Below are positions 122 through 54,961 of a stretch of 64,000 nucleotides of DNA, in pieces (position 1 is the stretch's first letter; each line of letters starts with the position of its first letter). The translations under genes and the position numbers were made by a program. Origin of the DNA: a virus. Lineage: Duplodnaviria; Heunggongvirae; Uroviricota; Caudoviricetes. The notes beneath the pieces were generated by a model that saw only the letters and a list, made by a program, of their open reading frames with translations, searched no databases and was not told where the DNA came from. The stretch is from IMG/VR virus record IMGVR_UViG_3300002835_000064; one strand, 5' to 3'.

Positions 122-334
122 ATGGATTATGTTAATGTTCAATTTACTTCAGATGAATTTAATGATTTTATTTTAAGTATGTTTGCGGCTCATATGTTAA
201 AAGAAATTGATGTTCAAGCTGCGGTTAATAGATTGTTAGAATATATCGACGATCGTAGTGATATCGAAGCAGAAGAAGCTAATCAAGTAGTACTTAATTG
301 TGTAAAACAATTTGAATTAAGAACCGGTGTTTAA
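122..334 (+). CDS. hypothetical small acidic protein (70 aa)
   Basis: ORF with AAGGA Shine-Dalgarno 6 nt upstream; no recognisable motif. Confidence 0.4.
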   Translation: MDYVNVQFTSDEFNDFILSMFAAHMLKEIDVQAAVNRLLEYIDDRSDIEAEEANQVVLNCVKQFELRTGV

Positions 335-953
335 TATGCGAAAATTAAAAATTCATAGTGGCTCAGGCGCTAATTTTGAAAATGATTATGACTTAGAGGG
401 GCGGTTAATTGGATATCGAACAATCGTTGATGGTGATATTATTTTAGAAGAAAAATATCCGATCGATATGTCGGATAGTGCTAGATCAAGATTATTTTGG
501 AGTAATATTGACAGTCAAGGTGAATTTTTTCGTGCGTTTATTTACGAAGATGAACAAGGCGAACGAAACCCAATGGGGGCGACTAAAAAATTAGATGGTC
601 ATGAATGTATGTCGGATTATGACCTTAGTGGTAATTTAGTTAGTTATTCGGATTCGTTAGGAAATTACTTATTCCAAGAGTTCGATGCATTAAATCGATT
701 AATTTATATTGATGATAATGAAGGTGAAGTTATTTGGTATGAGTATAGTAGCGAAGATCTAAATGAACCCAGTAATGTTTCTATTCGCAATACAACTAAT
801 GATATATTAGAATACGATAAAGATGGTAATTGTATCTATATAAAATTAGCTACTGGTTACGAAATACATAAAACATATGACGATCAAGGGAATATATTAT
901 CATATCGAAATTCAGACGGAATTGAATTCTTTAATGAATATATAGATATTTAA
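327..953 (+). CDS. small YD-repeat (Rhs-type repeat) protein, 208 aa
   Basis: At least 5 spaced YD-x-x-G-x-L-h-x-Y motifs (DYDLEGRLIGY, DYDLSGNLVSY, EFDALNRLIYI, EYDKDGNCIYI, TYDDQGNILSY). Confidence 0.55.
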   Translation: MFNMRKLKIHSGSGANFENDYDLEGRLIGYRTIVDGDIILEEKYPIDMSDSARSRLFWSNIDSQGEFFRAFIYEDEQGERNPMGATKKLDGHECMSDYDLSGNLVSYSDSLGNYLFQEFDALNRLIYIDDNEGEVIWYEYSSEDLNEPSNVSIRNTTNDILEYDKDGNCIYIKLATGYEIHKTYDDQGNILSYRNSDGIEFFNEYIDI

Positions 954-3571: not shown

Positions 3572-5446
3572 TTACTGTGGTGATGTGCGATGAATATCAT
3601 ACCCTTGACTTGCTCTAGTAGCCGTAGTAAATGTTACATAGCATGAATATGACGTATTTGGTAATCTATCTGGATGTGCATATGATTTGGAAGCAGTATG
3701 CGGATCGGCTAGACTAGATAGTAATGTAGTTTCTGTTACTCCAGTACTAAGTCCCCCTTCGTACCAATACCAAGTAATATCAGATGTAATAACATCGGTC
3801 GAATTTATAGTTAACGTTGAATTATCAAAATGGGGTGTTCCAGCTACTACATTATTAAAAGTCCAATCAAATGTTGGAATATTTGTCGCTGGTGGTGTGG
3901 GTGGAGTTGGAGCTACTACGTTAGGCCCAGGAACGTCGGCGACACCGGCAGTAGCACTATCAGCATTAGTAAGTGCGGCGCAGTTATCTGGTCTAGTATT
4001 ACCGCCAGTAGCAAATATAAGCTCAGTTCCGGTTGATGAACAGAATGCACTTTTACCGCCTCGCCATGGAACTTCAGTTACGCCATACGGTGGGGCGCCC
4101 CCCGCACTCGGGCCCCTTGGGGCCCCCTGCAAACCACCTTGACCTCCAGCCCCGACTTTAATAGTATAAACCGTTCCTGGAATTACCGCGTAACCAGTAT
4201 ATAATGTAGCACCACCACCTCCACCGCCAGCATTAACACAAGGTCCAATAGCGCCGCCACCGCCGCCGCCGATAACACCAATATCTATTTTAGTTACTCC
4301 GGCCGGAACCGTAAATTGACCAATTAATGCATGATCATACGGATCTACGGCAGTTTTTAGACCAGAACTATTATCCCATTCAATTGCTTTATCGCCAGTA
4401 ATTATTCTAGTTCCAGAAAATGTGGTTAAATCTGCAGGTGTAAATGAATATGATCCAGCGTTTATGGTAATTCTTATCAATCCACCAGTTCCATTACCGC
4501 CCCGAACTTGAGTTAACGTTTGATTCATATTATCAGTTTCTATACCACCCCCACCATTACCAATACCAGTTGCATTAATAGCAACCGCATCATATCCAGG
4601 TAATAAACCAGTACCGGCAACGCCTGCCCAGCTATATCCACCCCCACTACCCCCAGTTCCATACGTCCCATCACTTCCAGTAGCGGATAACCAATTACCC
4701 CCATTACCCCCTACTGGACTTGCGGATCCGCCCCCGCCATTACCATTATGACCGCCGGCTGCACTATATCCGCCGGTATAATTTGCAGTTCCGCCGTACC
4801 CAGCACCACCCCACGCCGCATTCGATGCTGGGATACCGCCTGGTATTACCGGTGGTCCAACAACTGCAGCTTCTACGGTAATTGCAGAACTAGTTACTGA
4901 TTCGGCAGTCCCTTTATCGTCCGTATAACTTACTTTACAGGTTATTGATTGCCCAACATCGCCAGCCACTGTTGCATAATGGTCCTGAGTTTCACCAGTA
5001 ATTAAGGTCGATCCGCGATACCATGCGTAAGTATAAACTGCTTGTAATAAACCATCTAAATCAACTAATGCGGATTTATTTAAGGTTAATGTATTACCGA
5101 CATGAGTATCTCCAGTTAATGTTAAAACTCCAGTTGGGGCGATATTAATTGATTTTAAATCTAATTCGACTATACTTGAATTTTTCTTTAGCCATAATTT
5201 AAAACCATCATATAAAACCTGACCGGGGATCATTTTAGTTTTAATTTCAGTAATTTCATTCGTCGATTTATTAACACATAATGTATAAAAATTAGTCGAT
5301 AGATTTAATACATTTTGTTGTAAAACATCACCGTATTTAAAATAATTAAAACCAATTAAATTTAAATTAGTTTCGTTATTTAAATCTTCAACATAAACAT
5401 TGTACGTTAATGAATCGTCGGATTTTTTTACACTATAATCTGTCAT
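3572..5446 (-). CDS. tail fibre / receptor-binding protein 2 (624 aa), glycine-rich C-terminal half
   Basis: Its first ~130 aa (MTDY..KSD.S.TY.V...LNN...L..IG.NYFKYGDVLQQN...) are paralogous to the upstream gene 5465-7045; poly-Gly tracts IGVIGGGGGGAIGP; last gene of the baseplate operon. Confidence 0.6.
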   Translation of the reverse strand: MTDYSVKKSDDSLTYNVYVEDLNNETNLNLIGFNYFKYGDVLQQNVLNLSTNFYTLCVNKSTNEITEIKTKMIPGQVLYDGFKLWLKKNSSIVELDLKSINIAPTGVLTLTGDTHVGNTLTLNKSALVDLDGLLQAVYTYAWYRGSTLITGETQDHYATVAGDVGQSITCKVSYTDDKGTAESVTSSAITVEAAVVGPPVIPGGIPASNAAWGGAGYGGTANYTGGYSAAGGHNGNGGGGSASPVGGNGGNWLSATGSDGTYGTGGSGGGYSWAGVAGTGLLPGYDAVAINATGIGNGGGGIETDNMNQTLTQVRGGNGTGGLIRITINAGSYSFTPADLTTFSGTRIITGDKAIEWDNSSGLKTAVDPYDHALIGQFTVPAGVTKIDIGVIGGGGGGAIGPCVNAGGGGGGATLYTGYAVIPGTVYTIKVGAGGQGGLQGAPRGPSAGGAPPYGVTEVPWRGGKSAFCSSTGTELIFATGGNTRPDNCAALTNADSATAGVADVPGPNVVAPTPPTPPATNIPTFDWTFNNVVAGTPHFDNSTLTINSTDVITSDITWYWYEGGLSTGVTETTLLSSLADPHTASKSYAHPDRLPNTSYSCYVTFTTATRASQGYDIHRTSPQ

Positions 5447-7054: not shown

Positions 7055-10000
7055 CTATAATATATTTGTTGATGTTAAATATTGAACCATCTCTATATCT
7101 TCCATGTCGATTGACGGTACTAAAATCTCATGCTCCATAGTAAATATCTGAAATAAATTACCAAAATGATTAAATTCGCTTTTTGGTTTTATAACAAATG
7201 AACTTATATTACCATTTAATGAATTATGAACGTAGGTCGATAATTCAGTAAAATTGAAAGTATTACCAAAATCCCAATCTCTAATATTAAAAAATTCATA
7301 TATTAATGTTACAATACTGGATTTAATTTGATTATCCGTAAATGTAGCGAATGGTGATTTCACAACTAAAAATTTAGCCTGTAATTCCTGTGCCGCATAT
7401 TTACCGAATATTACTTTCAACTCACCGGATTTAATAATCATTTCATCAGATATCATCTTATTAGTAATTAATTTATTATAAGATGCTCTTAATTCATGCG
7501 GTAATGGTTTGGCTGGTTTACTACCGATACCATTAATCCAATTCATGGTACTTTGATAATATCCTCTAGTTATAATAAAACAATCTATTATATTAGAACA
7601 TGATGGGTTAATTTTCATATTATCAGTTGGTGTATGTTGCCATAAGAAATTTAATCCTGAGCGTCCTTGTTTGCGTGTATATAATGCTTTTGATGAATCG
7701 AGTAATGCAAAAGCTTCCGCAAACCAATTAATTTTTTTAGAATCATCTATTATAGAATATGGAGTATCGATATCTGGTCTATAAAAATAAACATAGTCTT
7801 TAATTTTAACAGTAATTGTATTATTACTACCGTTATCTATTATAGTAATCTTATTAGTATATTGTAATTTATTAATATCTCGTTCTTTCCAAACTATAGT
7901 ATTATTTTCACCTAGATTCGAATTAGATGAACCTGAAACATCCCCAATAAATTCAACATCAGCTTTACCAGTTACTGGATCTACTATAGTAAATACATCA
8001 TACGGTAATTCAATAGTTGGAGTTTCGACATTAAATGAATCAAATGGCATATCAAAAACTCGATCAAATAATTGATAATAAGCTTTATCTTCGAAAAATT
8101 TATCAGTATCTGGATTAATAGTTATTGTATTAGTAGTTAACTGCAAAACTTCTGCTATATCAGGAACACCATCGTTATTATTATCACTTATTGAAACATT
8201 CAATGTATTATAATCCATTTGACCAATATATTGTGTTGGTTCTCTAAATGTATTAATATTCAAAATCGATAACGAAACTTCATTAGTTAAAAATTTAGTA
8301 TTATTTAATGTTCTATAGTCGGCGGCGTTCGATTTTAATATGGTTATATTATCTTGATTTGCGGCATAATTCCAGAACTTAGTCGATGGGCTATTTGCTA
8401 ATATTCTAGCTATTTTATATTTAATAACCCAATTATTGCCGATAACGTCAATATGAAATAACCAATCATCGCCAGTAATTGCCTGAGGATAATATTTAGT
8501 ATTATAATATATACCGAATGGTAATGTTGCCGGCGGAGCATTCATATCAGATAATGAATAAACTTCGCCCATGAAATTAAATACTATATCGTGTTGTTCG
8601 CTAGTTGCCGAACCACCAGTAAAATAACGTCTAGGTGATATATTATTAAATGCTCTATAATATAATGTATCATTATTCGATAATAATGGTTGAATATGAT
8701 TAATTAAAACCGATAATGCTGAAATTTTATTCGAGACAGTTATAGTACCAATATCATATTCTGTATAAATTGATAAATCAGTCCCAAAATGATTAATATT
8801 TTGGTAAGTATCACTCGGATCATTAAATCCGGTATATTTACTTTCGCCAGCATAGGTTCTATTAATAGACGCTAATTTTAAAATAGTATTATCTTGTAAT
8901 AATAATGAATTATAATCGCGAGCATTAACCATTCGATTTTGAGTATAATAAACCGATGGTGCATTTATTTTAATATGTTCTATATCTTCACTTGGTGCAG
9001 CATTTTGTATTGGTTGAACTAATGAAAATGTAAATATAGCATTTTGAACATTACCTTTACCATCTAAATATGCAAAATTAGATGAGACTTCACTGATCGC
9101 ATTCATTGGGATAGGAATTGGATCCGGATCTGAAGTTCGATACCAAATATCGAATATACCATTAGGTATATTAGCAAAATCACCATCACCAAATAAAATC
9201 GATATTTGGTCATTATCTAAAGTATTAATTTCGTATTTGTTTTTATTTGGATTATTACTAAAAATAATATTTTGTTCATTGATCGTATCGACTGCTTCCC
9301 AAGCGATTGAATCGGTCGAAGTAATTTGATTAACCCAAACATCAGTATTATTAATATTTTTTACATTTATATTAAATGATTGATGTGGGGTTATACCGTC
9401 AAATGAATCGGTTCTAGTTCTTTTTAATATACCTTGTTTAGTTAACATAAAAAAGCCGGTATAATTAGATGAATTACCTAATCCATCAGAACCATATAAT
9501 ATATTAAAATTTTGATTATTATTTGTCGTTATGATTTTTGGTCTTTGTTCGATTGGACCATCCGTTGTTAATTCAACTGATGTTAATTCCATATCAATTG
9601 ATTTATTTTGAACTTGTGTTTTATATTGTATTACACTATTTTCAAACGGCATATTATTAATTGAATATAGTTCAAATATTTGATCAAATACTTGGACTCG
9701 ATCGCTAGGTAAAACATCACCAAACGAACGTAATAATGTAGCGTTAATTACGGCAAAGAATTGTGATTGCCAATTAACATTATTAGAATCATTCCATATA
9801 ATTTTACTATTTGCTAAATTATTACCATTTAAATCATAAACCCGTTCTGATGTAGAAATTGATGTTATTTTTACTAAACCAGAACCTGGAATATTTCTCG
9901 ACGGATTATATGAAATAAATTTAGCTAATTTAAGAACCGAATCTTTACGCTGTGCAGTTGATAACAAATTTTCATTCGCTACCATATCTAATCGATAAGC

Positions 10001-10207
10001 ACTTAATTCGCAGACGTAGGCAAATGCCTCTAAAATCATTACAAATTCGTCGGTTTCAATCCAGTTATTAAATTCAGGATGTGTTAGACGAAAGTAATCT
10101 ATAAGTGATTGTTTTACGGTTGCATAATCAAAGCCGGTAAAATTTATAAATTTACTTGCCTGATATATTGTATCCCAAGATTCCGCTTTAGATAACTGAA
10201 TTGCCAT
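7055..10207 (-). CDS. baseplate wedge protein, gp6 / P2 gpJ family (1050 aa, extended)
   Basis: N-terminus FTGFDYATVKQSLIDYF...EFNNW...DEFVMILEAFAYVCELSAY matches the Baseplate_J / T4 gp6 signature (T4 gp6: IKQNLIEWL..EFLDYDFEGS.LNVLCDLLAY). Confidence 0.75.
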   Translation of the reverse strand: MAIQLSKAESWDTIYQASKFINFTGFDYATVKQSLIDYFRLTHPEFNNWIETDEFVMILEAFAYVCELSAYRLDMVANENLLSTAQRKDSVLKLAKFISYNPSRNIPGSGLVKITSISTSERVYDLNGNNLANSKIIWNDSNNVNWQSQFFAVINATLLRSFGDVLPSDRVQVFDQIFELYSINNMPFENSVIQYKTQVQNKSIDMELTSVELTTDGPIEQRPKIITTNNNQNFNILYGSDGLGNSSNYTGFFMLTKQGILKRTRTDSFDGITPHQSFNINVKNINNTDVWVNQITSTDSIAWEAVDTINEQNIIFSNNPNKNKYEINTLDNDQISILFGDGDFANIPNGIFDIWYRTSDPDPIPIPMNAISEVSSNFAYLDGKGNVQNAIFTFSLVQPIQNAAPSEDIEHIKINAPSVYYTQNRMVNARDYNSLLLQDNTILKLASINRTYAGESKYTGFNDPSDTYQNINHFGTDLSIYTEYDIGTITVSNKISALSVLINHIQPLLSNNDTLYYRAFNNISPRRYFTGGSATSEQHDIVFNFMGEVYSLSDMNAPPATLPFGIYYNTKYYPQAITGDDWLFHIDVIGNNWVIKYKIARILANSPSTKFWNYAANQDNITILKSNAADYRTLNNTKFLTNEVSLSILNINTFREPTQYIGQMDYNTLNVSISDNNNDGVPDIAEVLQLTTNTITINPDTDKFFEDKAYYQLFDRVFDMPFDSFNVETPTIELPYDVFTIVDPVTGKADVEFIGDVSGSSNSNLGENNTIVWKERDINKLQYTNKITIIDNGSNNTITVKIKDYVYFYRPDIDTPYSIIDDSKKINWFAEAFALLDSSKALYTRKQGRSGLNFLWQHTPTDNMKINPSCSNIIDCFIITRGYYQSTMNWINGIGSKPAKPLPHELRASYNKLITNKMISDEMIIKSGELKVIFGKYAAQELQAKFLVVKSPFATFTDNQIKSSIVTLIYEFFNIRDWDFGNTFNFTELSTYVHNSLNGNISSFVIKPKSEFNHFGNLFQIFTMEHEILVPSIDMEDIEMVQYLTSTNIL

Positions 10208-10310: not shown

Positions 10311-10592
10311 ATGGCTTATACACTTAAAATCGATGCGGCCGGTAATTCGTTTACTGTTGATGCTGCCAATAACACTACTAGTACACCATTTACTTTATAT
10401 CCACAAGGAAATGGAGTTGAGTATGGCGAAGGGTTTCAAAATAATTTAGTTCATGTATTAGAGAACTTTGCCGGTCCAACAGAACCAGCTATTAAAATCC
10501 CAGGATTGATGTGGTATAATACTGCTATTACACCACCTAGATTACAATTGTGGACTACCGGCAATGAATGGAAAATGGTTACTCTTATATAA
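10311..10592 (+). CDS. stand-alone paralog of the tail-fibre N-terminal domain (93 aa), opposite strand inside the baseplate operon
   Basis: GLMWYNTAITPPRLQLWTTGNEWK motif shared with the fibre N-termini and with ORF 983-1279. Confidence 0.35.
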   Translation: MAYTLKIDAAGNSFTVDAANNTTSTPFTLYPQGNGVEYGEGFQNNLVHVLENFAGPTEPAIKIPGLMWYNTAITPPRLQLWTTGNEWKMVTLI

Positions 10593-10594
10593 TA

Positions 10595-11077
10595 TTAACT
10601 TACGAATTCAATATTAAAATTCATATTTTTTGTAACATTGAGTTCTATATAAAATAAACTCAATGTTACAGTTAATGCATTATGATCGTAATCCGCGTTA
10701 ACATCAATAGAATTTAGTGATACTCTGGGGTCGTAAGCAACAACAGCTTCTAATTCGCTTCTGCATTGGTCTATAGTTTCTTGATCTAATGGCTCGAAAA
10801 CTAAATACGGAATATTAGTTCCAAATTTAGGCATCATTATTCGCTCGCCTTTTCTCGTAAAAATATGATTTAATATATTACGTTCAACTAATTTAATATC
10901 AGTTAAAACAAAGGTATTATTACCGTCGTTTTCTTTAGCCATAAACGTATCAATAATCGGAGCTATTTTTTTAGTTCCATCTAATTGTTTAGCGGCGAAT
11001 GAACCAGTAGTTTTAAAGCCTAATTTATAATCAATAGACGAAAATCCTTTATATAACGCCATCTTTATCTTCTCCAA
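10595..11077 (-). CDS. 25: baseplate wedge protein gp25 / P2 gpW family
   Basis: HIFTRKGERIMMPKFGTNIPYLVFEP...DP matches the T4 gp25 core (TRKGSRPFDPEFGCDL..LFE); 160 aa. Confidence 0.8.
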   Translation of the reverse strand: MEKIKMALYKGFSSIDYKLGFKTTGSFAAKQLDGTKKIAPIIDTFMAKENDGNNTFVLTDIKLVERNILNHIFTRKGERIMMPKFGTNIPYLVFEPLDQETIDQCRSELEAVVAYDPRVSLNSIDVNADYDHNALTVTLSLFYIELNVTKNMNFNIEFVS

Positions 11078-14000
11078 TATTTACTGCGAGGTGAATTATC
11101 TTTTCCTATTTGTGGATCATCGTATTTATATTTTTGAGTTTTATCAGTATCACTCATATTATCAGATCTAGCCCAAGGTTCATGCTTCGGTATTCTAGTT
11201 GGAAATGCGGCTATTTTAGCAGTCTTTGGAGTCGGTTTAGCATCCATCGTATTTGCATTTGCCATATCTGAAATTTTTTCTGGAGCCATACATGATAATG
11301 CAGTATTCGCCATTTCCGGTGACATATTCGACATAATATTACCCATTTCCAATCCGGGAATATTATTTAATGCATCGCCTAAACCAGGTAATGGAACATT
11401 AGAAAGCATGTCAGTTACATTATTTAATGGTAATTTTGATAATAATCCACTCATATCATTAATTGGTAATTTTGACATTAAATTACCGAAATCCGCACCA
11501 TTTAATTTAGATAAAATACCATTAACATCAGGAATACCGTCTAATACTTTACTAATATCACCACCGGGTAAATTATTAAACATATTACCTAAACTACCAC
11601 CACTAATATCAGATAAGAATTTTTCTGTATTTGGGAATTGATCTAACATATGTGTTAAATCGCCGCCGGGTAATTTTCCTAATAAATCACCGACATGATG
11701 ATCGGCTAAACCATCAAATAAGGTATGTGCATCTGGTATAGCTTTGAGTAATTGACCGGATTGCAATCCTGGTATATTAGTTAATATATCTCCGCATATA
11801 TGTTTAGGTGCATCTAATAATACATTCGCTGCATGAACACCTGGAATATTATTTAAAACATGACCTAAATCCGCACCAGACATAAAATCATGTATTGGAG
11901 CATTAGTTATTTTAGATAATTGAGATGATATACTACTAATATCAACTCTGGGAATTGTACTTTTAATATCGGATACTTTAGCATTTGGAAAATCTGGTAA
12001 TGTATCTAATATATGAGTTGATAACCCGGACATCGCATTTGGAATAACGCCGGATGGTAATTGATGCATTACGTTATTAATTTGCTTAATTGGTAAGGTC
12101 GATAACATACTACCAATATGAGTATCTGGCATTTGCGATAATACGTGGCTAATATTATCAATTGGTAGTCGATTTAAACAATCCCCGACGACATTATGTG
12201 ATAAATTAGTTAAAGTTCCGTTAATATTAGGTAAGCTATTTAAAACCTCAGGTAATAAATTATTAGAAACTTTACCTAAAACATTACCTAAATTACCACT
12301 AGCTAATGCATGAATAGTAGTTCCCATATTAGGTAGTTTATTTAATATAGTATCCATATGCAAATTAGATATATTATTCATAACGCCACCTAAATCTAAG
12401 CTAGGTAGCTTATTCATAATACCACCTAAATCAATATTAGGTAGTTTATTTAATAGATTACCGACGTCTGGTAATTTCGATAATAATCCACCTACATCTG
12501 GCATTTTATTTAATATACCACCAATATCAGGTAACCCACCCATAATATTACTAATATCCGGAATATCTGGTAACATATGAGCTATATCGGGTAAAACATT
12601 ACCTAAATCTGGCATATTAGCTAAAACATCACCAATATTATCAGATATGCTATTCATAATTCCACTCATATCTGGTAATTGATGCATTACGGTATCCATA
12701 ATATTCGGCATTGAATTCATAACGCTATTTAATTGACCCATCGCGGCTGTAAATTCAGTTGATAATGCGCCACCAACTTCGCCGGCTAATGAACTTAATT
12801 CGCCCGTTACATCATTAATAGCGGTCCCTAGTTCGCCCATTACATCACCTAAGGCTCCACTAACTTCACCCATTACTCCACCGATAGTATCAGTAACTGC
12901 ACCCATTGCATCGCCTAATGCACCCATAGCCTCGCCTAATGCCCCACCGATTTCTCCAGCTACTTCTCCTACGGCAGATCCGACTTCACCTAATGCACCA
13001 CTAATTGCTGCACCTACACCACTTAATGCCCCACCTACCGGGTTTGGTTCAACGCCCGTTAATATAGCTGGTGATGCGACGGTTACTAAAGCGCCAGTTA
13101 CATTAGTCATTTTACCGGCTAAGTTTAATGCGCTTTTACTAGATACGCTAGCGGTTCCACCTGACATACTTAACATACCCATACCAGATACACTAGTCAT
13201 AGCGCCAGACATACTCATCATGCCTTTACCACTAACACTAGTCATCAAACTAGAAACACTTGCAGTTCGATCACCGGATACACTAGTTGATTCGCCGGTA
13301 ATACCCATAGATTTTTGAGCGCTAATACCGCAAGTTTTTGACCCGACTGAATAATTATCCGAAGCTGATGATGTTATATTGGTTGCATTTTTATTAATAT
13401 CTTTTGCTGCGGTTAAATTTAAATTATTTTCTGCATTTAAATGAATATCTTTTGCGTTTAATCTAATTGAATTAGCTGCATGCAAATTAATATCTTTATC
13501 CGAATTAATTGATATAGTTTGCGTTCCGAATATATCTATTGTTCCGTCTTGATCTAATTCTATCCAACTATTACCTTCCGCAGTATTAATATAAATTCGT
13601 TCATTAGTATCATCGAATATAACTTGATGACCACTACTAGTTCTTAATCTAACGCGACAATTATCTTGACTATCGTCAAATGATAATGCATGAAATCCTG
13701 GAGTCGTCAATGAATATATTTGACTATCATAATTAGCATCGGTCGCACTATTTTTTAAATTAGGTTGCAATCTAGATTTTTTATAACCGGAAGTTGAATC
13801 TTTTTGTTTTGATGGAGTTGTTTGATTATCTATATGATCCTGAGTTAAACCAGTTACACTAACGTCAGCAGCTCGAGATTTAAACTCATGTTTGCCTTTA
13901 TCATCACCAAACGCCTTTTTAAGATTATCATATAATGGTTGAATTGGTTGTTCTTCTGATGAATAGGGCCCATCATTACCATCTTCGCCGATAAATCTAC

Positions 14001-14364
14001 CGTGGGGCATAGTATGTTCTGCATTAACTGGAGGCATACACCCAATATAAACGCGTCGGGTTGGATCACCACCTAAACACATTACCGCAACTATGGCGCC
14101 TACTTTAGGAGTAGCCCAAAATCCATAAGCGACACCACCTTTCGTTTTATGATCTCCAGAACCTCTAGTCATTTCATCTGAGTTAACTAAACCACCAAAT
14201 GGACTAATATATCGACACCAAGGTAAATTTTCATAATCAGTACTCGGTAAATCGCCGTAATCTTGGCAATATACTTTTATACGGCCTCTATTTTGTGGAT
14301 CATTGGTATCAACTACAGAACCTTCTACAATCGTGGTATATGGGTTAGATGCGCCTGAATACAT
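11065..14364 (-). CDS. baseplate central spike, gp5 / gpV OB-fold family, with a long repetitive C-terminal extension (1099 aa)
   Basis: N-terminal G.VVDTNDPQNRGRIKVY...LPWCRYISPFGG is the Phage_base_V / gp5 OB-fold signature; a beta-helix-like S/T/G-rich middle; >30 degenerate 11-13-aa repeats h-LNKLP-x-h-x-x-G in the C-terminal ~500 aa. Confidence 0.7.
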   Translation of the reverse strand: MYSGASNPYTTIVEGSVVDTNDPQNRGRIKVYCQDYGDLPSTDYENLPWCRYISPFGGLVNSDEMTRGSGDHKTKGGVAYGFWATPKVGAIVAVMCLGGDPTRRVYIGCMPPVNAEHTMPHGRFIGEDGNDGPYSSEEQPIQPLYDNLKKAFGDDKGKHEFKSRAADVSVTGLTQDHIDNQTTPSKQKDSTSGYKKSRLQPNLKNSATDANYDSQIYSLTTPGFHALSFDDSQDNCRVRLRTSSGHQVIFDDTNERIYINTAEGNSWIELDQDGTIDIFGTQTISINSDKDINLHAANSIRLNAKDIHLNAENNLNLTAAKDINKNATNITSSASDNYSVGSKTCGISAQKSMGITGESTSVSGDRTASVSSLMTSVSGKGMMSMSGAMTSVSGMGMLSMSGGTASVSSKSALNLAGKMTNVTGALVTVASPAILTGVEPNPVGGALSGVGAAISGALGEVGSAVGEVAGEIGGALGEAMGALGDAMGAVTDTIGGVMGEVSGALGDVMGELGTAINDVTGELSSLAGEVGGALSTEFTAAMGQLNSVMNSMPNIMDTVMHQLPDMSGIMNSISDNIGDVLANMPDLGNVLPDIAHMLPDIPDISNIMGGLPDIGGILNKMPDVGGLLSKLPDVGNLLNKLPNIDLGGIMNKLPSLDLGGVMNNISNLHMDTILNKLPNMGTTIHALASGNLGNVLGKVSNNLLPEVLNSLPNINGTLTNLSHNVVGDCLNRLPIDNISHVLSQMPDTHIGSMLSTLPIKQINNVMHQLPSGVIPNAMSGLSTHILDTLPDFPNAKVSDIKSTIPRVDISSISSQLSKITNAPIHDFMSGADLGHVLNNIPGVHAANVLLDAPKHICGDILTNIPGLQSGQLLKAIPDAHTLFDGLADHHVGDLLGKLPGGDLTHMLDQFPNTEKFLSDISGGSLGNMFNNLPGGDISKVLDGIPDVNGILSKLNGADFGNLMSKLPINDMSGLLSKLPLNNVTDMLSNVPLPGLGDALNNIPGLEMGNIMSNMSPEMANTALSCMAPEKISDMANANTMDAKPTPKTAKIAAFPTRIPKHEPWARSDNMSDTDKTQKYKYDDPQIGKDNSPRSKYWRR

Positions 14365-14374
14365 GTGGGTTATC

Positions 14375-14884
14375 CTAAAGTGTTAATTGTGTTGAATATT
14401 TTGTATAATCGAATATAAATGGAGTTTTACATACAAAATATAATTTTATAAAATTAAGTTTACCTAATTTAATAGGGGTATGTTGATGTGCGAAATTAGG
14501 CGAGCTCGGAAATATTAATAAATTACCAATTCCTGGTTTAATTATTGTTTTATAATTCTTAAATATTAATTCACCACCATAAACTTCGGTTTCTAAATCA
14601 AATGGTGGTATATTATTATAATCATTTAATGTAATATAACAAGTAAAATCATAATTATTTTTGCGAATCCATTTATATTGATAATAACTATTATCGCATA
14701 TTATTTTATTACTGGGTGATAATATAATAGGTGGTATTATATTATCAATAGTAACATTATAATAATCATTAATTATTGGAATTAATTGTTGAGCTTTTGA
14801 TGTGACGAAATCTAAAACGGTTTCACTACTGCATTTTAATGGCGATATAAATCCATCTATCGTTATAATAGGTGATTTTTGCAT
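14375..14884 (-). CDS. hypothetical baseplate-operon protein (169 aa)
   Basis: ORF tightly packed between the spike and the upstream gene; no motif recognised. Confidence 0.45.
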   Translation of the reverse strand: MQKSPIITIDGFISPLKCSSETVLDFVTSKAQQLIPIINDYYNVTIDNIIPPIILSPSNKIICDNSYYQYKWIRKNNYDFTCYITLNDYNNIPPFDLETEVYGGELIFKNYKTIIKPGIGNLLIFPSSPNFAHQHTPIKLGKLNFIKLYFVCKTPFIFDYTKYSTQLTL

Positions 14885-15560: not shown

Positions 15561-16688
15561 ATGATTTTTTCAGAATTTTTAAGAGAAGATGGGGAGGCGG
15601 GTTGTGTATCAGCTGGTAATGTTGCTGGAACCCGAGGTTCGCTATTCGGTATGATAACTCGAGATGGTAGTGCCGCCAAAAAGGGCAAAAAAAGAAGATT
15701 AAAAACATTTTTTGAATCAGTTGTTAAATCTGATGAGTTCAGTGCTGAAGATGTATTATCAAAATTAAATGGCGCGGAAAAAGAAAATAAATTAAAAGAT
15801 AACTCTATTGCTTATGGTATCGAAGACGCCGAAGGTAATATTACTAAAGTTTATATCGATAAAGAACAAGACGAAGCTTTTAAAAGAGCATTAGGTGAGT
15901 ATTTAGATGATGATCAAACTTTAGATGTTGCTGAAATTTTATTTAATTTACGCAATTCATTTAATATCTTATTCGTCGAATGGCCTAAATTACCAGAAGA
16001 TGAAGAAGTTGATAATAAATTAGATAACCCAGAAGGTGCACCAGAAGGTGACGAAGGTGAAATGCCTCCCGAGGGTGAACCTGGAACAGAAGGTGATATT
16101 AAACCAGATGATAATACTCCTCAAGAAATTGGTCAACCAGAAGATAGCTCAAGTTTATTATTAAAAGTTATTGATATGTTAAAAGCAGACGCTGATGCTA
16201 AAACGGCGGAGTCTAATGCGAAAGCTAAAGAAGCGGAAGCTGAGCAAGCGAAATTATCTATTCAAATGTCTAATATTAAAGTTAAGAATGAAGAAGATAT
16301 GTTGCGGGCAGAAGAACATTTTAAAAAACAAAACGATGATAAAAAAGAACAAGAACGTGTTGCTAAATTAGCAAAATACAGAAGTGAAATAAACAATAAT
16401 GCTACTTACGAGGGAGCCATGTCAATTTTAGATTTTATGCATTCTGATTTAAAAGATATTAATGAAGATATTAATGATGATGAATTACGTATTCAAACTC
16501 AAATCGCAGATTTAAATGTTCGTAAAAATCGTGCTATGAAAGTTTATGATGATCAAGTTAAAAGATTACAAAATCAACTTTTAAATATTAATAAGCAACA
16601 ACAATCAGCTGGCGGAAGACCACAAGGTAATCCACAACAACAGCAAGGTCAACCACAACAACAACCGCAGGGACAACCACCCCGTTAA
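15561..16688 (+). CDS. acidic coiled-coil protein with PEG-rich and Q/P-rich low-complexity tails (375 aa), opposite strand inside the tail operon
   Basis: AAGGTGA RBS 6 nt upstream of the ATG; PEGAPEGDEGEMPPEGEPGTEGD and QQQQGQPQQQPQGQPPR tracts; converges on the tape-measure stop. Confidence 0.5.
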   Translation: MIFSEFLREDGEAGCVSAGNVAGTRGSLFGMITRDGSAAKKGKKRRLKTFFESVVKSDEFSAEDVLSKLNGAEKENKLKDNSIAYGIEDAEGNITKVYIDKEQDEAFKRALGEYLDDDQTLDVAEILFNLRNSFNILFVEWPKLPEDEEVDNKLDNPEGAPEGDEGEMPPEGEPGTEGDIKPDDNTPQEIGQPEDSSSLLLKVIDMLKADADAKTAESNAKAKEAEAEQAKLSIQMSNIKVKNEEDMLRAEEHFKKQNDDKKEQERVAKLAKYRSEINNNATYEGAMSILDFMHSDLKDINEDINDDELRIQTQIADLNVRKNRAMKVYDDQVKRLQNQLLNINKQQQSAGGRPQGNPQQQQGQPQQQPQGQPPR

Positions 16689-19600
16689 TTTGTTTTAGCT
16701 GCCGGTGGTTGTCTATTATCAGTTGGTTTAATAGGTGGGGTGAGTTCAGCTTGTTTCTCGTCCCACCAAGTTTTTATAATCTTCGCCACTTCATCAAATG
16801 AGTTATTGAATTTTTTAATAGCCATATTCGCATCATTTTGTTTAATATCACCCAATAATTCAATCATTTTAGCTATTTGATCATCTCCAGCATTTGCTAT
16901 TACCTCACTAGGTATAACCGCATTTTGCCGTCCAGTTTCAGTTGGTATTGTTTCAGTGGTACCACTATTATATGGTTTATATCCAGAACCGCCAGTCGCA
17001 TGTCGTTGTGTTTTGGTTGGTGATTCTGCATCACCCCCGGGTAATGACATACTCTTAGAACCTTTACCCTCAGATAAGTATTCGGATGCTAAATATCCAC
17101 CACCGACTAAAATAGCGGCAATCGCTGCAACCACACCACCAACAGCTAACGCACCAACTACACCTTCAGCAACAGCAGCCCCACCTGCGCCCATCATCAT
17201 TCTAGTTAATAATGCAGTCCCACCAATATTTAATGCAGTATTCGCTGCACTAGAAACCGTACTACCACCTAATGTATCAGTCCATGCTTTTAATGTTGCA
17301 TTCGCACTAGCAATACGCTCTATAAAAGTTTGTTGATTCTGCAAACTCATATCAGTTAATAATGGTATTAATTTTTTTTGTTCTTCCGGTATATTCATAC
17401 CCGGCGAAGCAATTGGTGATTTTTTTGCAGTCGATAATGTACCACCGATTGCTTCACCTGCTATTTGAAATGCTTCTGGTAATTTAGATTTAAATTCATC
17501 CATTAATCTATTTAAATTACCAATTTGTTTAGCATCGACTCCAGACACATATCCTGATGAATCTCGTTTTGATTGAGTATACTCTGCTTTAGCTAATTCA
17601 ATTTTTCGAATTAACTCGCGCATAAAATTCATTTCGTCTTCGGTTGCTAATTCTGGACCTTTTCCTGCAATTTCTGCCGCGCGGCGTTTATCAGCTGATG
17701 TTATGTCTTGTAATTCGCCGGCATGTTGTAATATACCGATTAAATTCATCATGCCGCCGGTAGCTTCTGCGCTTTGTTGGGGCGTCATTATTTTAGAACC
17801 GATAGCCATCGCTTCAGCGAATTGCTGAGCAGCTTCATCAGACATTTTTAAACTTTTTGCGTATGCGAAATGTGATGCTATTTCTTCAACTTTCTTTTTA
17901 GCTAATTTATCATCTAATCCAGCTAACATCCGTTGTGCATTAGTCGTTTTAACAATAGCTGATGTAGCGGCTTGTTGGGCTTTTGGATCAGCACCAAACA
18001 TATAATTATTCGCTTGAATACTTCTTTGATAATTTCTTATATCTTGCTCATTCATTGCACCGCCGATGGCTTGATTAATCTGCTCCATCTGCAATGATGC
18101 TTCTAATATATCTTTCGGTAGTGGTCCTAATATTTGTTCCCAAACGTCTCGTTGGCTAGCTAATTTAGCTTTAAATGCTTCATTTCCACCAGCTGCTAAT
18201 GCAGTTGATCTGTTTTCTTGCATTAGTTTAAAGTAATCGGGTTCACCAATTTGCATATCACTCATAAAACCGCGATCAACTCCACCAACAAATCGACTTT
18301 GACCGACGGCTCTACCTTGAATATATGATATATTTTCTTCAAAGAATTTTTTAATCGCTGGTATTAAATTCGCGGCTATTTGGCCTTTAAATCCGGCTAT
18401 TACATCACCTCGATCTCTACCGTCAGAAGTGGTACCAGTTCGGCGAACATCTGCCATATCCGCAATAAAATTACTAAATATACCACCTTGTTCTCTTAAA
18501 TTTCTAGATAAAATAGAACTAAATGTTTTATTATGCTTCGCAAATGCATCCGATGTTTTAATTAAACCATGTTGTATTTGATTACTAACTTCTTCTAATC
18601 GCTCTAATACTCCATTACTAATGGGGCCTGCCGAACCATCACTATTAAATTGATGCAATTTTTCACATAATTCTTCGATTTCCGGCGTAATTAATTTCAT
18701 ACTAGCAGCAAACGCTACATAATTTTCTAATTTAACCGCATTTGCTTCGTTAATATATCCGCCACTAAGGATTAATTCTTTCATAGTAGCTTCGTGCAAA
18801 TCACCGTATCGTCTTAATTTTACAATACCCTCATCTAAACCATTAAATGATAAACCAAGACTTTGCATGTGTTTAGTAAATTCAGATGAAAATTCAGAAT
18901 TCATCTTATCCCAGTTATAAAATACCCCTTTAGCAGTATCAGTTAATTCATCTAATATTTTAGTTAATGATTTATTTGATAATTCGGCTTGATCTATTAA
19001 TCGTTTACTTATTTCTAATTGAGTAGTTCCTAATAGATTAGCTAAAGTATTACGCATTTCAACCATTGATTGAGTAATTTGCCGCTCTAATTCTTGTATA
19101 ACCGTTTGATCTACTCTATTACCGGTATTTAAAAAGTTAGTCATCGGATTAGCTGAAACATCATTGATTGTTCCGGCTGTTTGGCCTGCAGCTAAGTATT
19201 TTTCAGCGGCTTCTTTTGTTACGTTATTTAAAACGCCGGCATTATCTTTTAATGCGTCTATTAAGTTAGCAATCGATTGATCAAAAATAACAAATCGCTG
19301 ATCGCTGTTTAATTTAGCTATCGCATCATTAGAATCCATCCCAGCATCATTTAATTGGCGTAATGATCGTTTGTAACTATTATAAAAATCAGTTATATTT
19401 TTATATTGACTAGATAATGATTGAGTTAAATCAACATTATGTAAATCTTTTGCCATTTTTTCTAATGCATTAGTTGCATCATCGAAAACTTTATTATATT
19501 TGGTTTGATTTTCTTTTGCATCTCTTAATAAAATTGATGCCGCTTGTCTAGTTGCAAAATCTGCTGCTGATATACTACCAAGTATGGATGCATTTGCTTC

Positions 19601-20182
19601 CATTGTGGCTTTAGTCGTATTATTAAATTGTGTTTCGATATCTTTAAATGCAGTCGACATAATATTCGCTGATTTACCCATATCGACAAAACGTTTAACT
19701 ATATTATAATTTTCGTTAGTTATTAAACCGGCACTAGCATTTAAAGATTTAACTAATGTTGCTTGAGCATCAGTAAACTTTTTTAATGTTATAATATTTT
19801 CTAATGGGTTTAATGATTTTTTAAAATAAGCACTTGATGATGCAGCTGCTTTTTGAAATTCTTCTGATGCAGCTCTTAATGATCTAATAGCATTAAGTGA
19901 ATATTGTGTAAATTTAGATGAATTTTTATCTAATGATTTTGATAATGTATCTGTACTTCTCGCCGCAATTTGTTGCTGTTTATTAACTTCTTTTATCTGA
20001 GCTTTAAGATTATCTAATGCAGAAAATGTTTCTTTGGCGCTTTTACTAGCTCCTCTCATGCGAGTATTAAACTCGGCAACTTCTGCCACTGCATCTGCAG
20101 TAATTGATGCTACTGAACTTTGTTGTCTAGCGGCTTCATATAAAAATTGCGTAAATAGGGAGGTTGCGTCTTGAGCTGCCAT
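16685..20182 (-). CDS. tail tape measure protein (1165 aa)
   Basis: Long, largely helical low-complexity protein with a Gly/Ala-rich hydrophobic segment (GGAAVAEGVVGALAVGGVVAAIAAILVGGG) typical of tape-measure proteins; sits immediately upstream of the baseplate genes. Confidence 0.7.
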   Translation of the reverse strand: MAAQDATSLFTQFLYEAARQQSSVASITADAVAEVAEFNTRMRGASKSAKETFSALDNLKAQIKEVNKQQQIAARSTDTLSKSLDKNSSKFTQYSLNAIRSLRAASEEFQKAAASSSAYFKKSLNPLENIITLKKFTDAQATLVKSLNASAGLITNENYNIVKRFVDMGKSANIMSTAFKDIETQFNNTTKATMEANASILGSISAADFATRQAASILLRDAKENQTKYNKVFDDATNALEKMAKDLHNVDLTQSLSSQYKNITDFYNSYKRSLRQLNDAGMDSNDAIAKLNSDQRFVIFDQSIANLIDALKDNAGVLNNVTKEAAEKYLAAGQTAGTINDVSANPMTNFLNTGNRVDQTVIQELERQITQSMVEMRNTLANLLGTTQLEISKRLIDQAELSNKSLTKILDELTDTAKGVFYNWDKMNSEFSSEFTKHMQSLGLSFNGLDEGIVKLRRYGDLHEATMKELILSGGYINEANAVKLENYVAFAASMKLITPEIEELCEKLHQFNSDGSAGPISNGVLERLEEVSNQIQHGLIKTSDAFAKHNKTFSSILSRNLREQGGIFSNFIADMADVRRTGTTSDGRDRGDVIAGFKGQIAANLIPAIKKFFEENISYIQGRAVGQSRFVGGVDRGFMSDMQIGEPDYFKLMQENRSTALAAGGNEAFKAKLASQRDVWEQILGPLPKDILEASLQMEQINQAIGGAMNEQDIRNYQRSIQANNYMFGADPKAQQAATSAIVKTTNAQRMLAGLDDKLAKKKVEEIASHFAYAKSLKMSDEAAQQFAEAMAIGSKIMTPQQSAEATGGMMNLIGILQHAGELQDITSADKRRAAEIAGKGPELATEDEMNFMRELIRKIELAKAEYTQSKRDSSGYVSGVDAKQIGNLNRLMDEFKSKLPEAFQIAGEAIGGTLSTAKKSPIASPGMNIPEEQKKLIPLLTDMSLQNQQTFIERIASANATLKAWTDTLGGSTVSSAANTALNIGGTALLTRMMMGAGGAAVAEGVVGALAVGGVVAAIAAILVGGGYLASEYLSEGKGSKSMSLPGGDAESPTKTQRHATGGSGYKPYNSGTTETIPTETGRQNAVIPSEVIANAGDDQIAKMIELLGDIKQNDANMAIKKFNNSFDEVAKIIKTWWDEKQAELTPPIKPTDNRQPPAAKTN

Positions 20183-42941: not shown

Positions 42942-45900
42942 ATGTTTATATCTAAACCCCTATTAAATACTAGATTATTTACTGCCGCCACTATATTATT
43001 ACCATCAGATCCGTTACCGGCGGTTGTAGCTTCTGTTTTTTCGTATTCGCCTATAGATACATTAACGGTTAGAGGCGGAACTAAATATCGGGCAGATAAT
43101 GGAATACATCCATATCGATATAAATTAGTTGGATCTAATGATGTTGGTATTACTATCGATGAGTTTACTGGTGCAATAACAGGAACTATATCTCGAATTA
43201 ATGCTAAATTTTTAAATATAACATTAAGATTAGAAGTCGCGGATTTCCATAATATTCGAGCTAATTTTAATGATCCTATTGTTAATTTAGGAACAAAAAA
43301 ATATTGCACTATCGATATTAAAGTTTCATGGCCTGCCATAGTCGTTACTACACCAGCAAATAAAGCAACATTAAATAAAAATATGGATGATACTGTTAGT
43401 TTCAATCCATTTACTTATGCTGACGGTCATTATGATATAGTCGGTGGTGCAAGTGCGGGTGGGACTTTTGCTGATGCCGATTTTAAATATTATTTCGACT
43501 CGGAAAGTTTACAATTAGCGTTTCCCGAAGCAGTCCACGGTTCAGCTTTTTTTAATACTATAACCGAAACTTCGTTCGGTGATTTAATTTTAAATCCAGA
43601 TACTGGTGAAATTACTGGGCGATTAAATCATTATTTTAATCCTATGTTTAATCATACAGCCGGAACGAAGAATATGACGTTACCGGTATTCGTTCGAGAT
43701 AAATTTAGAAATAGCAGTAATGTTATTAACGTTCAATTTAATTTAACTTTAGAGCCGATTGCGATTATACCTGCACCACCTATTGATATTCATGTTACGG
43801 ATGGTAACCCAACTGATATATCTATACCGATAACTAATGGTAACGGTAATGGTGGTGTTGGGCCTTTTGATTATACATTTAATGATAATAGATTAACTGA
43901 TGAAGGTTTTAGAATTGTAACCGGAGATGATGGTGTTACTCGATTAGTAAGAGATGATGCTAGTTCTGGAGGTACTGGCGGATCAGGAGGTACTGGTGGA
44001 TCAGGAGGTACTGGTGGATCGGGAGGTACTGGTGGATCAGGAGGTACTGGTGGATCAGGAGGTACTGGTGGATCAGGTGGATCAGGTGGTACTGGAGGAA
44101 CTGGTGGATCAGGTGGATCAGGTGGTACTGGAGGAACTGGTGGATCTGGAGGAACTGGTGGATCAGGAGGTACTGGCGGAACTGGTGGAACTGGCGGAAC
44201 TAGTTCGACTATAACTGTTACCGACGGAGCTGGTCAAACCACAACTATAACGATTTGGGTTGAAGTCGTACCTGATATCGTATTAACAGCAACTAATCAA
44301 ACTATTATATTAGTAGTAAATGATCCATTAAGTTATTATGATGATAATTCTAAATCATATTATAACAAATATGTTTTAGATCCGTTTAATGGCACGACGG
44401 GTGGGTATCCAGTAAGTACCGCCGGCGGAGTTAGTGTTTATAAATCATATACTAGTTCGAATGTTTCTGTCCCGATCGGTTTAACCACTGGTATAGTAAC
44501 TAGAACATCATCGTTTGCAAATCCTAGCACCGATGGTTCGACTAAAAGTATTTTTACATTAACTGATAATTATGGGTTTACTAAAACTATCACCCATACA
44601 TATTTAATTTATCCAGCATTAGCCGCTTCGGTCGTTACTAGTTTACCATTAAAGGGTAATAATACGCAGTATAGAACTAAATCATTTTATAATGAATCAT
44701 CATTAGCTATATTCGAACCAATTACAGTAACAGCCGGTTCTGGTTCATATGTTTATCATATAAAAAGTACGACTGACGGTGCTATTATAAACGGAACTAC
44801 AACCGATACAACCGACAAATATCAATTAGATATTAGAACTGGCGAATTATCATCAATTACGCAAGTTACTGGCGTCGGTCAAAAATTAATTGAAATTGAA
44901 GTTACCGATACTATCACTAAACGGGTAGTTAATGGATTATTTGTTCAACTATCCGTCGATTATAAACCATTTATTGTTGTTGATAACCCGGTCACGATAC
45001 CGGCGACCGAAACTATTCGAGGAAGTGCGTCTACTTATACTCCGAATACTATAACTAGTGGTAATGGTTCTTATACTTGGACCGTATCGGTCGAATCAAC
45101 GAATTCTCATAATACGACAGATTATGGTAATGTTTCTATCGATGCTAGTGGTATTGTTACTTATACTCCACCAATAACGTTACCGTCGGATATAAGAACT
45201 AATCCATCGGTTAATATAACAGTTACAGTTACTGATGTCGCATTAAGTGATTTACCGTCCGGAACACATACATATACATTTACCAGACCATTAGCATTAC
45301 CGGCAAATACTCCAGGAACTATTATATTAACTGGAGCTATTTCGGGTGCATATTATTCAGATACTGCAATTACTGCATCACTATCTGATTTCGATGATGT
45401 TGTTGGTAATGTTATTTGGTCTTTAATTCCATCTAATAATGCGGCACCGACTATAAATCAAACATTAGATAATGCATCAAGCGTTACTTACAATTCTAGT
45501 GTCGGGACTGACGTTACAGTAACCGCGACATATACCGATACCTTAGCTTCTAATCAAAGAGCTCAAACAACATTTAATATAAGACAAAGTTCAACCAAAA
45601 TAACAGATTTACCGACTGACGGTCCGTTCATAGATTATCCAGTTCCGCCGGGTATTATATCGATTGATGTCATCGTAAATGGTGGCGGTGGTGGTGGCGG
45701 TGGCTGGGATTTATTAACCGGAGGTGATGGTTGCGATGGTGATTCTATCACTGCCACTTTCGATGTTAATGTCGGTGAAAATCTACAAATTTATATTGGT
45801 GCTGGTGGTGCTGGCGGTACAGTTGTATACGACCAATTCCATTGGGATCAAATCAATAGAATACCGAATGATAAATTACCAAATATTATAAATCCAGCTA

Positions 45901-54864: not shown

Positions 54865-54961
54865 TAAAATCGTTTAAAATTAAGTAGTTCGTGGTAGTTC
54901 TAGCCGGTAGAATAAATAAAATATTACAATACAAATTTACATCATTTGGAGTTAATATTAT

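Follow-up and report, generated by a model that had tools for sequence, protein, structure and literature searches.

What is a long array of short repeats doing beyond the beta-helix of a phage's cell-puncturing spike? The question is raised by the spike gene in a 64,000-nt stretch of DNA (the window) from IMG/VR record IMGVR_UViG_3300002835_000064, which belongs to the Caudoviricetes and comes from an uncultured, low-GC, T4-related myovirus. The usual account of a central spike has an OB-fold and a beta-helix, to which a lysozyme and a small tip may be added. A preliminary description of the window singled out positions 11065-12700, corresponding to aa 555-1099 of the spike protein, as a C-terminal array of degenerate repeats that might form an extended needle, interact with membranes, or be a released cargo. 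Judged from profile comparisons and predicted structure, this array is a greatly extended member of the MgtE_N/FliG ARM-like repeat class. Sequence comparisons support one ancient insertion of the array between the beta-helix and a conserved C-terminal module. We think it probable, with modest confidence, that the array is a non-enzymatic binding or spacer payload that sits at the distal end of the spike and is delivered into the host envelope.

Results

The gene encodes a central spike with a long extension

The open reading frame (ORF) for the spike is unbroken across 11065..14364 on the minus strand and encodes 1099 aa. Comparisons at the sequence level confirmed that the product is a gp5/gpV/VgrG-type central cell-puncturing spike, based on matches to the OB-fold and the beta-helix, the baseplate gene context, and the presence of T4-type gp23 and gp21 in the window. 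PF04717 (Phage_base_V) matched aa 14-58 with 40.1 bits (cutoff 23.8) and was found in 15 of 15 members of the array family. The N-terminus resembles the gp5-like hubs of the jumbo phages XacN1, Xoo-sp13, and PA5oct.

The beta-helix corresponds to phrog_13211 (annotated 'baseplate hub subunit and tail lysozyme') over aa 233-394 and to a solved VgrG chain, 8gra, over aa 230-392 (E = 3.6e-4). We modeled the protein with AlphaFold2 (AF2), using monomers throughout and, for the spike, a 15-sequence alignment. The model had strands at aa 216-423 with a predicted local distance difference test (pLDDT) score of 60-83, and Foldseek matched the beta-helix to spikes of the VgrG and extracellular contractile injection system type (7aef, 8gra, and 9jg9; probability 1.0). 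There was no Pfam match to the lysozyme, SLT, or M23 families anywhere in the 1099-aa protein. The stretch of T4 gp5 that corresponds to the region between the OB-fold and the beta-helix houses the lysozyme of that protein.

The beta-helix is followed by a linker rich in Gly, Ala, and Met. Residues 441-545 contain no Lys or Arg and 27 Gly, have a net charge of -13, and show a Gly periodicity at 3-4, 7, and 11. The linker was modeled with a pLDDT of only 22-43, is not conserved among homologs, and had only weak matches, to tape-measure or coiled-coil-like proteins. Pfam, PHROG, PDB, and AF2 agree on the order that had been described, in which the OB-fold, the beta-helix, and the Gly/Ala-rich segment precede the repeats.

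The repeats are predicted to form an ARM-like superhelix

The motif [LIVMF]xx[LIVMF]P was present 28 times in aa 541-1030, compared with 4.9 +/- 2.1 (maximum of 15) in 2000 shuffled sequences, and just once within aa 1-540. Spacings between motifs were 10-12 residues or multiples thereof, and the autocorrelation of hydrophobic residues, like that of Pro, peaked at 12 and 24. We found no enrichment of the motif in other ORFs in the window. The consensus of the unit, Phi-G-[DNH]-Phi-L-[NSD]-[KNQ]-Phi-P-[DNG]-x-[GDN], has hydrophobic residues at i, i+3, i+4, and i+7 followed by Pro, the pattern of a short amphipathic helix closed by Pro. The AF2 model had 36 short helices over aa 604-1040, one per repeat and about 12.1 aa each, with pLDDT values of 80-88 across aa 645-1030. 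This supports the earlier count of more than 30 repeats of 11-13 aa. The units are old at the DNA level: Tandem Repeats Finder detected only short, weak arrays, and the median DNA identity from unit to unit was 0.5.

The array matched the MgtE_N family (PF03448, FliG clan) with 47.5 bits in the window spike (gathering score 25.9) and in 15 of 15 aligned members (best E = 2.2e-33). Additional Pfam matches among the members were to FliG_C (in five), FliG_M (in three), and FliG_N (in one). A single-sequence search of the PDB with the C-terminal half of the spike gave nothing significant, and the MgtE and FliG structures were reached only through the family profile. A profile of the last ~90 residues of the array, built from 11 members, matched MgtE 2oux (9.5e-6), FliG 3hjl (6.7e-5), 3usw (9.3e-4), and MgtE 2yvy (1.3e-3), and MgtE N-domains and FliG were the sole significant PDB matches of the array profile. 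Foldseek grouped the predicted array with ARM/HEAT solenoids, including importins and designed armadillo proteins.

An MgtE_N domain has about 10 helices. The array is a continuous run of about 36, and apart from it the protein has just the OB-fold and beta-helix domains. Sequence and predicted fold place the array in the MgtE_N/FliG family, yet it lies outside the usual size and domain context of that family. The PF03448 fold is an ARM-like right-handed superhelix found in the MgtE N-domain, FliG, MotE, FlgY, and FlbB; MotE, FlgY, and FlbB are periplasmic E-ring proteins that work through binding of partner proteins, and in FlgY and FlbB the head consists of four helices (PMC13023049).

These properties bear on two of the functions that had been suggested. 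An extended needle is unlikely, as the model predicts an alpha-solenoid with one arm per chain and not a trimeric beta-structure. Direct insertion into a membrane, which we considered and rejected, is unsupported: there was no transmembrane-grade window (maximum KD19 hydrophobic window of 1.39), and the net charge of the array is -24.

A conserved module ends the protein

The array is real and long, as had been described, but it is not the end of the protein. The last ~55 aa (1046-1099) are non-repetitive, basic (net charge +6), and strongly conserved, with the invariant residues P-x-H-E-P-W-x-R … R-x-x-x-W-x-R ending at the stop codon; the pattern of the module, which is ~55-110 aa long in its various forms, is WTNRVPxHEPWxR…G.VEG….R..FWRR*. 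The short spikes of this group (390-628 aa) run from the beta-helix straight into the same module. The contrast that had been drawn with canonical spikes, which end in a short apex, therefore holds for the long repetitive region and not for the ending: the window protein also ends in a short module, the same one that ends the short, 'canonical' spikes of its clade.

We surveyed 55 spike loci from IMG/VR. The module is fused directly after the beta-helix in the short and medium spikes (~42 of the 55) and after the array in the array-bearing spikes (8 complete and 2 truncated loci). In the remaining type, with an SLT lysozyme (3 of the 55), the module is absent from the spike and a tail protein of 109-114 aa is encoded just downstream. 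In a neighbor-joining tree built on 311 conserved N-terminal columns, the array-bearing spikes all fell in one clade with a 390-aa short spike as its sister; the short spikes with a fused tail were basal, and the SLT-type spikes formed a separate clade. Because the array-bearing spikes make up one clade and the short spikes join the beta-helix directly to the tail, these sequences support a single ancient insertion of the array between the two.

The module is portable and virion-associated. A profile of the tail retrieved standalone proteins of ~107-113 aa. On contigs of 53 kb and 368 kb, their genes (109-110 aa) directly follow the gene for an SLT-type spike and have gp25 on the other side. 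The next gene past the spike in XacN1 and Xoo-sp13 encodes an M23 peptidase that ends, past a poly-Pro linker, in the same module; mass spectrometry detected XacN1 ORF322 in virions (PMC5852040). Scanning DNA with a degenerate pattern for W-T-N-R-V-P-x-H-E-P-W yielded 73 loci, 60 with a complete ORF, and in all 60 of these the module was at the extreme C-terminus (37 spikes, 22 standalone proteins, and 1 M23 fusion, L127). Locus L075 encodes a 652-aa spike with an entire standalone-type sequence fused past its beta-helix. The two forms are a fusion/fission pair, which argues for an association of the module with the distal spike end.

We found no Pfam, PHROG, or PDB relative of the module. Pfam searches with the standalone proteins gave nothing at E <= 1, PAAR included, and PDB searches with two tail profiles gave one chance match (E = 0.35). 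There was no second copy of the module and no PAAR gene elsewhere in the window. We rejected a PAAR identity for the tail, which has no Pfam match and an almost strand-free AF2 model, and also an HxH apex, as the module has one invariant His, in P-x-H-E-P-W, and no HxH. The module appears to be an adaptor, so far unrecognised, for the spike end or for attachment to the virion.

The array is conserved in one clade and rare elsewhere

A search of 5.8 billion protein clusters identified 17 homologs that have the OB-fold and MgtE_N repeats (P0001-P0017) at 31-40% identity. Most are full length (P0001-P0014 and P0017), and IMG/VR added 8 complete (L008-L014 and L017) and 2 truncated array-bearing loci. 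The layout of head, array, and tail was present in about 25 independent metagenomic assemblies from several sources. The preliminary description had left open that the gene might be two ORFs joined by a sequencing frameshift or that the repeat might not be conserved in close relatives. Neither concern was borne out: there is one ORF here and in all homologs, and the array is present in every close relative. With an uninterrupted ORF and the same architecture in these assemblies, collinear end to end, we give practically no credence to an artefact of sequencing or misassembly, in favor of which we found nothing.

A long repetitive region after the beta-helix is indeed unusual. A HMMER scan with aa 541-1099 found 42 proteins at E <= 0.001 among 1.84 billion representatives, several of them short spikes of 390-490 aa that share the tail. 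There was no array-type spike among the INPHARED phages and no phage spike with such an array in BFVD. The exact protein was absent from a collection of 15 billion sequences, and megablast with 20 kb of the window gave no match to deposited phages in INPHARED. In the literature we found no description of MgtE-like domains on phage hubs or of this spike architecture.

Identity to the relatives was 61-68% in the N-terminal domain, 60-70% in the proximal beta-helix, 41-57% in the C-terminal module, and 20-30% in the array. The arrays of P0012 and P0013, which are 50% identical, nevertheless aligned without a single gap across 428 columns. The exact length in such close pairs, together with the pattern of a fold, argues against a disordered neutral linker. 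The pattern fits a folded domain with a fast-evolving surface, as would suit a host-facing binder or a structural spacer.

Several members (P0003-P0008 and P0011) have a hydrophobic, Gly/Ala-rich insert inside the array (alignment columns ~1100-1260); the corresponding segment of the window spike precedes the array. The Gly/Ala-rich segment is mobile or of recurrent origin. Five members (P0001, P0006, P0010, P0014, and P0017) had been named 'Mg/Co/Ni transporter MgtE' or 'flagellar motility protein MotE' by public pipelines. These names are due to the repeat and are a systematic misannotation of phage spikes, which identification of the repeat class corrects. Three non-phage proteins (P0054, P0055, and P0057) have 10-12-residue L-x-x-L-P-x-x-D repeats, indicating that long arrays of this repeat class, uncharacterised, exist outside phages. 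The non-phage repeat proteins include a secreted CxxCH protein, a lipoprotein-like protein of 1190 aa, and a polytopic membrane protein with ASKIPDVSNL repeats.

Related phages carry enzymes in the same slot

An SLT_3 lysozyme follows the beta-helix in XacN1, Xoo-sp13, and P0025 (~aa 594-690, with DUF2345 at ~364-538). The layout of the group is beta-helix, optional payload, and module, with a gene break before or after the payload. Sister clades have either an M23 peptidase or an SLT lysozyme as payload, and the clade of the window spike has the ARM-like array. The suggestion of a released cargo is compatible with this layout and near the interpretation that we prefer, since this slot is occupied by peptidoglycan hydrolases in related phages. 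None of the window's other large ORFs that were examined matched a peptidoglycan hydrolase.

Genes around the spike

The coordinates of the spike domains and of the neighboring tail genes are collected in Table 1.

Table 1. Features of the spike gene, neighboring tail genes, and locations of the C-terminal module in related loci.
Feature	Position	Strand	Residues	Remarks
Whole spike gene	11065..14364	-	1-1099	1099 codons plus stop; one ORF; N-terminus aligns with the N-termini of homologs
OB-fold domain, gp5/VgrG type	13975..14364	-	1-130	PF04717, E = 4.8e-10
Inter-domain region	13675..13974	-	131-230	free of enzyme domains; kept across the family; low AF2 confidence
Triple-stranded beta-helix, DUF2345/VgrG-like	13090..13674	-	231-425	
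Gly/Ala/Met-rich acidic linker	12730..13089	-	426-545	
Repeat array	11245..12729	-	546-1040	~36-40 degenerate 12-residue repeats; predicted MgtE_N/FliG-type ARM-like alpha-superhelix
C-terminal module	11068..11244	-	1041-1099	conserved, portable; …FPTRIPKHEPWARS…PRSKYWRR*
Module in L002	8721-9560			
Module in L001	8852-9664			
Module in L005	8001-8330			
Module in L006	8001-8333			
gp25-like baseplate wedge protein	10595..11077	-		downstream of the spike; PF04965, E = 1.8e-11; phrog_261; synteny conserved
gp6-like baseplate wedge protein	7055..10207	-		phrog_10646, E = 3e-228; adjoins gp25 in relatives
Likely tail tape measure	16685..20182	-		1165 aa; phrog_167, E = 2.8e-10; no Pfam match

Upstream of the spike gene is a conserved cluster consisting of a RimB-like retropepsin-type protein (PF05618; 14863-15708, minus strand), a 169-aa protein (14375-14884, minus strand), and a 375-aa protein (15561-16688, plus strand). 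The RimB-like retropepsin, two genes upstream, was considered as a processing protease specific for the array and rejected, as the same cluster flanks short spikes that lack the array. A 93-aa ORF between the gp25-like and gp6-like genes (10311-10592, plus strand) had weak PHROG matches to 'virion structural protein' and a homolog by tblastn in L008.

Elsewhere in the window, an ORF of at least 3014 aa (54956-64000, plus strand) runs off the end, and its sole match was a weak one to 'phage tail repeat like'. The SLT-type jumbo loci L005 and L006 have giant ORFs of 3179 and 3673 aa after the gp6-like gene. A 1820-aa protein (42942-48404, plus strand) has six FG-GAP repeats (E = 3.5e-48) and Gly_rich_2, and a 624-aa protein (3572-5446, minus strand) also has Gly_rich_2; both may be fibre or adhesin proteins. 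A 208-aa ORF (327-953, plus strand) matched RHS repeats (E = 2.9e-8).

Discussion

A payload that would be delivered into the host envelope

We propose that a payload of ~600 aa, consisting of a flexible, variable linker and about 36 repeats, was inserted once in one phage clade, and that its repeats stack into an elongated, acidic, ARM-like alpha-superhelix. Three such solenoid arms, one from each chain of the presumed trimer, would lie at the distal end of the spike and link the beta-helix to the end module. Contraction of the sheath would then drive the arms through the outer membrane and first into the periplasm, where they might bind proteins or extend the reach of the spike, without catalysis, as other ARM-like MgtE_N modules do. 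In this way the arms could position or anchor the module at the tip of the spike on a target in the envelope. There is a precedent in T4, in which the spike tip gp5C-gp5.4 binds the periplasmic chaperone PpiD (PMC7600766). That contact is one of few known cases of spike action in the periplasm, and the array offers a handle on what spikes do once past the outer membrane. A second precedent is provided by the MgtE_N-type domains of MotE, FlgY, and FlbB, which serve as binding modules in the periplasm (PMC13023049).

Several points weigh against this proposal. The surface of the array is poorly conserved, with ~7 invariant columns and 20-30% identity, which suits a spacer as well as a binder. 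AF2 leaves both the linker and the tail (pLDDT < 40 for the latter) unmodelled, and its model of the standalone module is largely irregular (mean pLDDT of 69), with almost no secondary structure. The match to MgtE_N could also reflect convergence of 12-residue helical repeats rather than shared descent.

The linker is long (~120 aa) and probably flexible, and could instead let the acidic arms run back around the beta-helix while the basic module docks on the conserved proximal spike or hub, making a collar for protection or assembly that is shed at firing and has no role in the host. The charges of the parts are complementary (array -24, linker -13, tail +6), conservation within the protein is highest in the module and in the N-terminal 330 aa, and in T4 gp5 the lysozyme domains are packed beside the beta-helix. 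However, the module of the short spikes is only ~10-20 residues past the end of the beta-helix and cannot reach the proximal end, and L075 fuses a whole standalone-type module distally; we regard this fold-back arrangement as unlikely. It is distinctly unlikely, in our judgment, that the array is simply a neutral expansion, that is, a tolerated, slippage-prone, low-complexity linker that joins the beta-helix to the module and has no specific role. The number and sequence of repeats do vary among homologs (the region is 438-645 aa), the array changes far more quickly than the remainder of the spike, a natural sister spike of 390 aa does without it, and a few adjacent units are locally similar, suggesting duplication. 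But all members of the clade, a deep one with identities of 31-40%, keep the array, at a cost of ~1.5 kb of coding sequence. Its units are old, close relatives keep its length and register exactly, and it has a confidently predicted fold.

We think it very improbable that the array is a delivered effector that imitates MgtE_N-type modules of the host (FliG, MotE/FlgY/FlbB, or MgtE) and binds flagellar motor or stator scaffolds or a regulator of Mg2+ transport, so as to manipulate the host or gain entry at the motor region. The similarity of the profile to MgtE and FliG only is specific, and the same slot in other phages holds enzymes that act in the periplasm. Around the flagellar MS-ring, periplasmic domains of the MgtE_N type have TPR partners to which they bind (PMC13023049). 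The cellular domains are small, however (a four-helix head in FlgY and FlbB; PMC13023049), and the array has 36 helices. Moreover, no one host family is closer to the array than the others, the array surface is poorly conserved, and the nearest non-phage matches are unrelated secreted repeat proteins. Hardly any weight should be given to a tape-measure-like or channel segment, in which the Gly/Ala-rich helices and repeats would be extruded as a conduit for DNA across the periplasm or inner membrane. This idea draws on weak PHROG tape-measure matches to aa 442-822, weak similarity to 6v8i, the tape measure of 80alpha (E = 0.08), and the GxxxG-type periodicity of the linker. These matches all fall short of significance or stem from composition, the region is strongly acidic and has no transmembrane-grade hydrophobic segment, and the Gly/Ala segment is not kept in homologs. 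We likewise rejected a spike that doubles as the tape measure, since the window has a separate candidate for that role.

The delivered, non-enzymatic payload thus remains the interpretation that we favor. A broader version of it is possible, although we consider it doubtful: the HEPW…WRR element may be a PAAR-independent adaptor for the spike end, not recognised before, that can be fused, separate, or a loader of enzymes and that defines a general payload slot in a large group of T4-related and jumbo myoviruses, with the array as the first non-enzymatic payload, an injected arm that would guide delivery of the genome by binding one particular host protein of the periplasm or inner membrane. 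The spikes of this family point to a modular slot at the distal end, able to hold an SLT lysozyme, an M23 peptidase, or the ~500-aa ARM-like scaffold and closed by one conserved end module, whose structure is uncharacterised. This layout suggests a rule, taken from nature, by which cargo could be loaded onto contractile injection devices.

Comparison with known systems

The window spike resembles the gp5/gp5.4 spike of T4 in its N-terminal OB-fold, its beta-helix region located C-terminal to that domain, and the position of the hub gene beside the wedge genes, and some of its relatives have a small, separate tip element after the spike gene. It does not qualify as a T4 gp5 proper, since it has no lysozyme domain: there is none between the OB-fold and the beta-helix, and the payload comes after the beta-helix. 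The ~500-aa array has no counterpart in T4, and the end element is HEPW…WRR rather than PAAR.

Like PAAR proteins and gp5.4, the module is a small distal element. It can have its own gene downstream of the spike gene, and it can be joined to an enzyme (M23) in the way that PAAR proteins are to effectors. This likeness is an analogy of position and not homology. The module has no PAAR match in Pfam, is predicted to be irregular in contrast to a beta-cone, and is present in one copy per chain when fused. The apex of P2 gpV and phi92 gp138 is loaded with iron through an HxH metal-binding motif, and the module, with its single invariant His, differs from these as well.

Close counterparts are the pairs of spike and tip gene in the jumbo phages XacN1 (ORF321/ORF322), Xoo-sp13, and Stenotrophomonas CM1/RAS14, whose spikes have 37-40% identity to the window spike over the N-terminal 300 aa, the same gp25/gp6 synteny, and the same module. 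In contrast to the window spike, they have SLT_3 after the beta-helix and a different ending, and their module is on a separate M23 peptidase or a protein of ~109 aa. The array has the 12-residue helix-turn units and the L-x-x-L-P/S pattern of the MgtE N-domain, FliG, and MotE-FlgY-FlbB. However, the cellular forms are small and joined to CBS or transmembrane parts, FliG M/C domains, or coiled coils, whereas the array has ~36 helices inside a phage spike that is without MgtE or FliG domains.

Evolved VgrG spikes of type VI secretion systems have C-terminal effector domains after the beta-helix. The window spike, whose beta-helix matches VgrG, likewise has a C-terminal extension after the beta-helix, one that would be carried into the envelope of the target. 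It differs in that the locus is that of a phage and not a type VI secretion system, and in that the extension appears to be a non-enzymatic solenoid followed by an end module.

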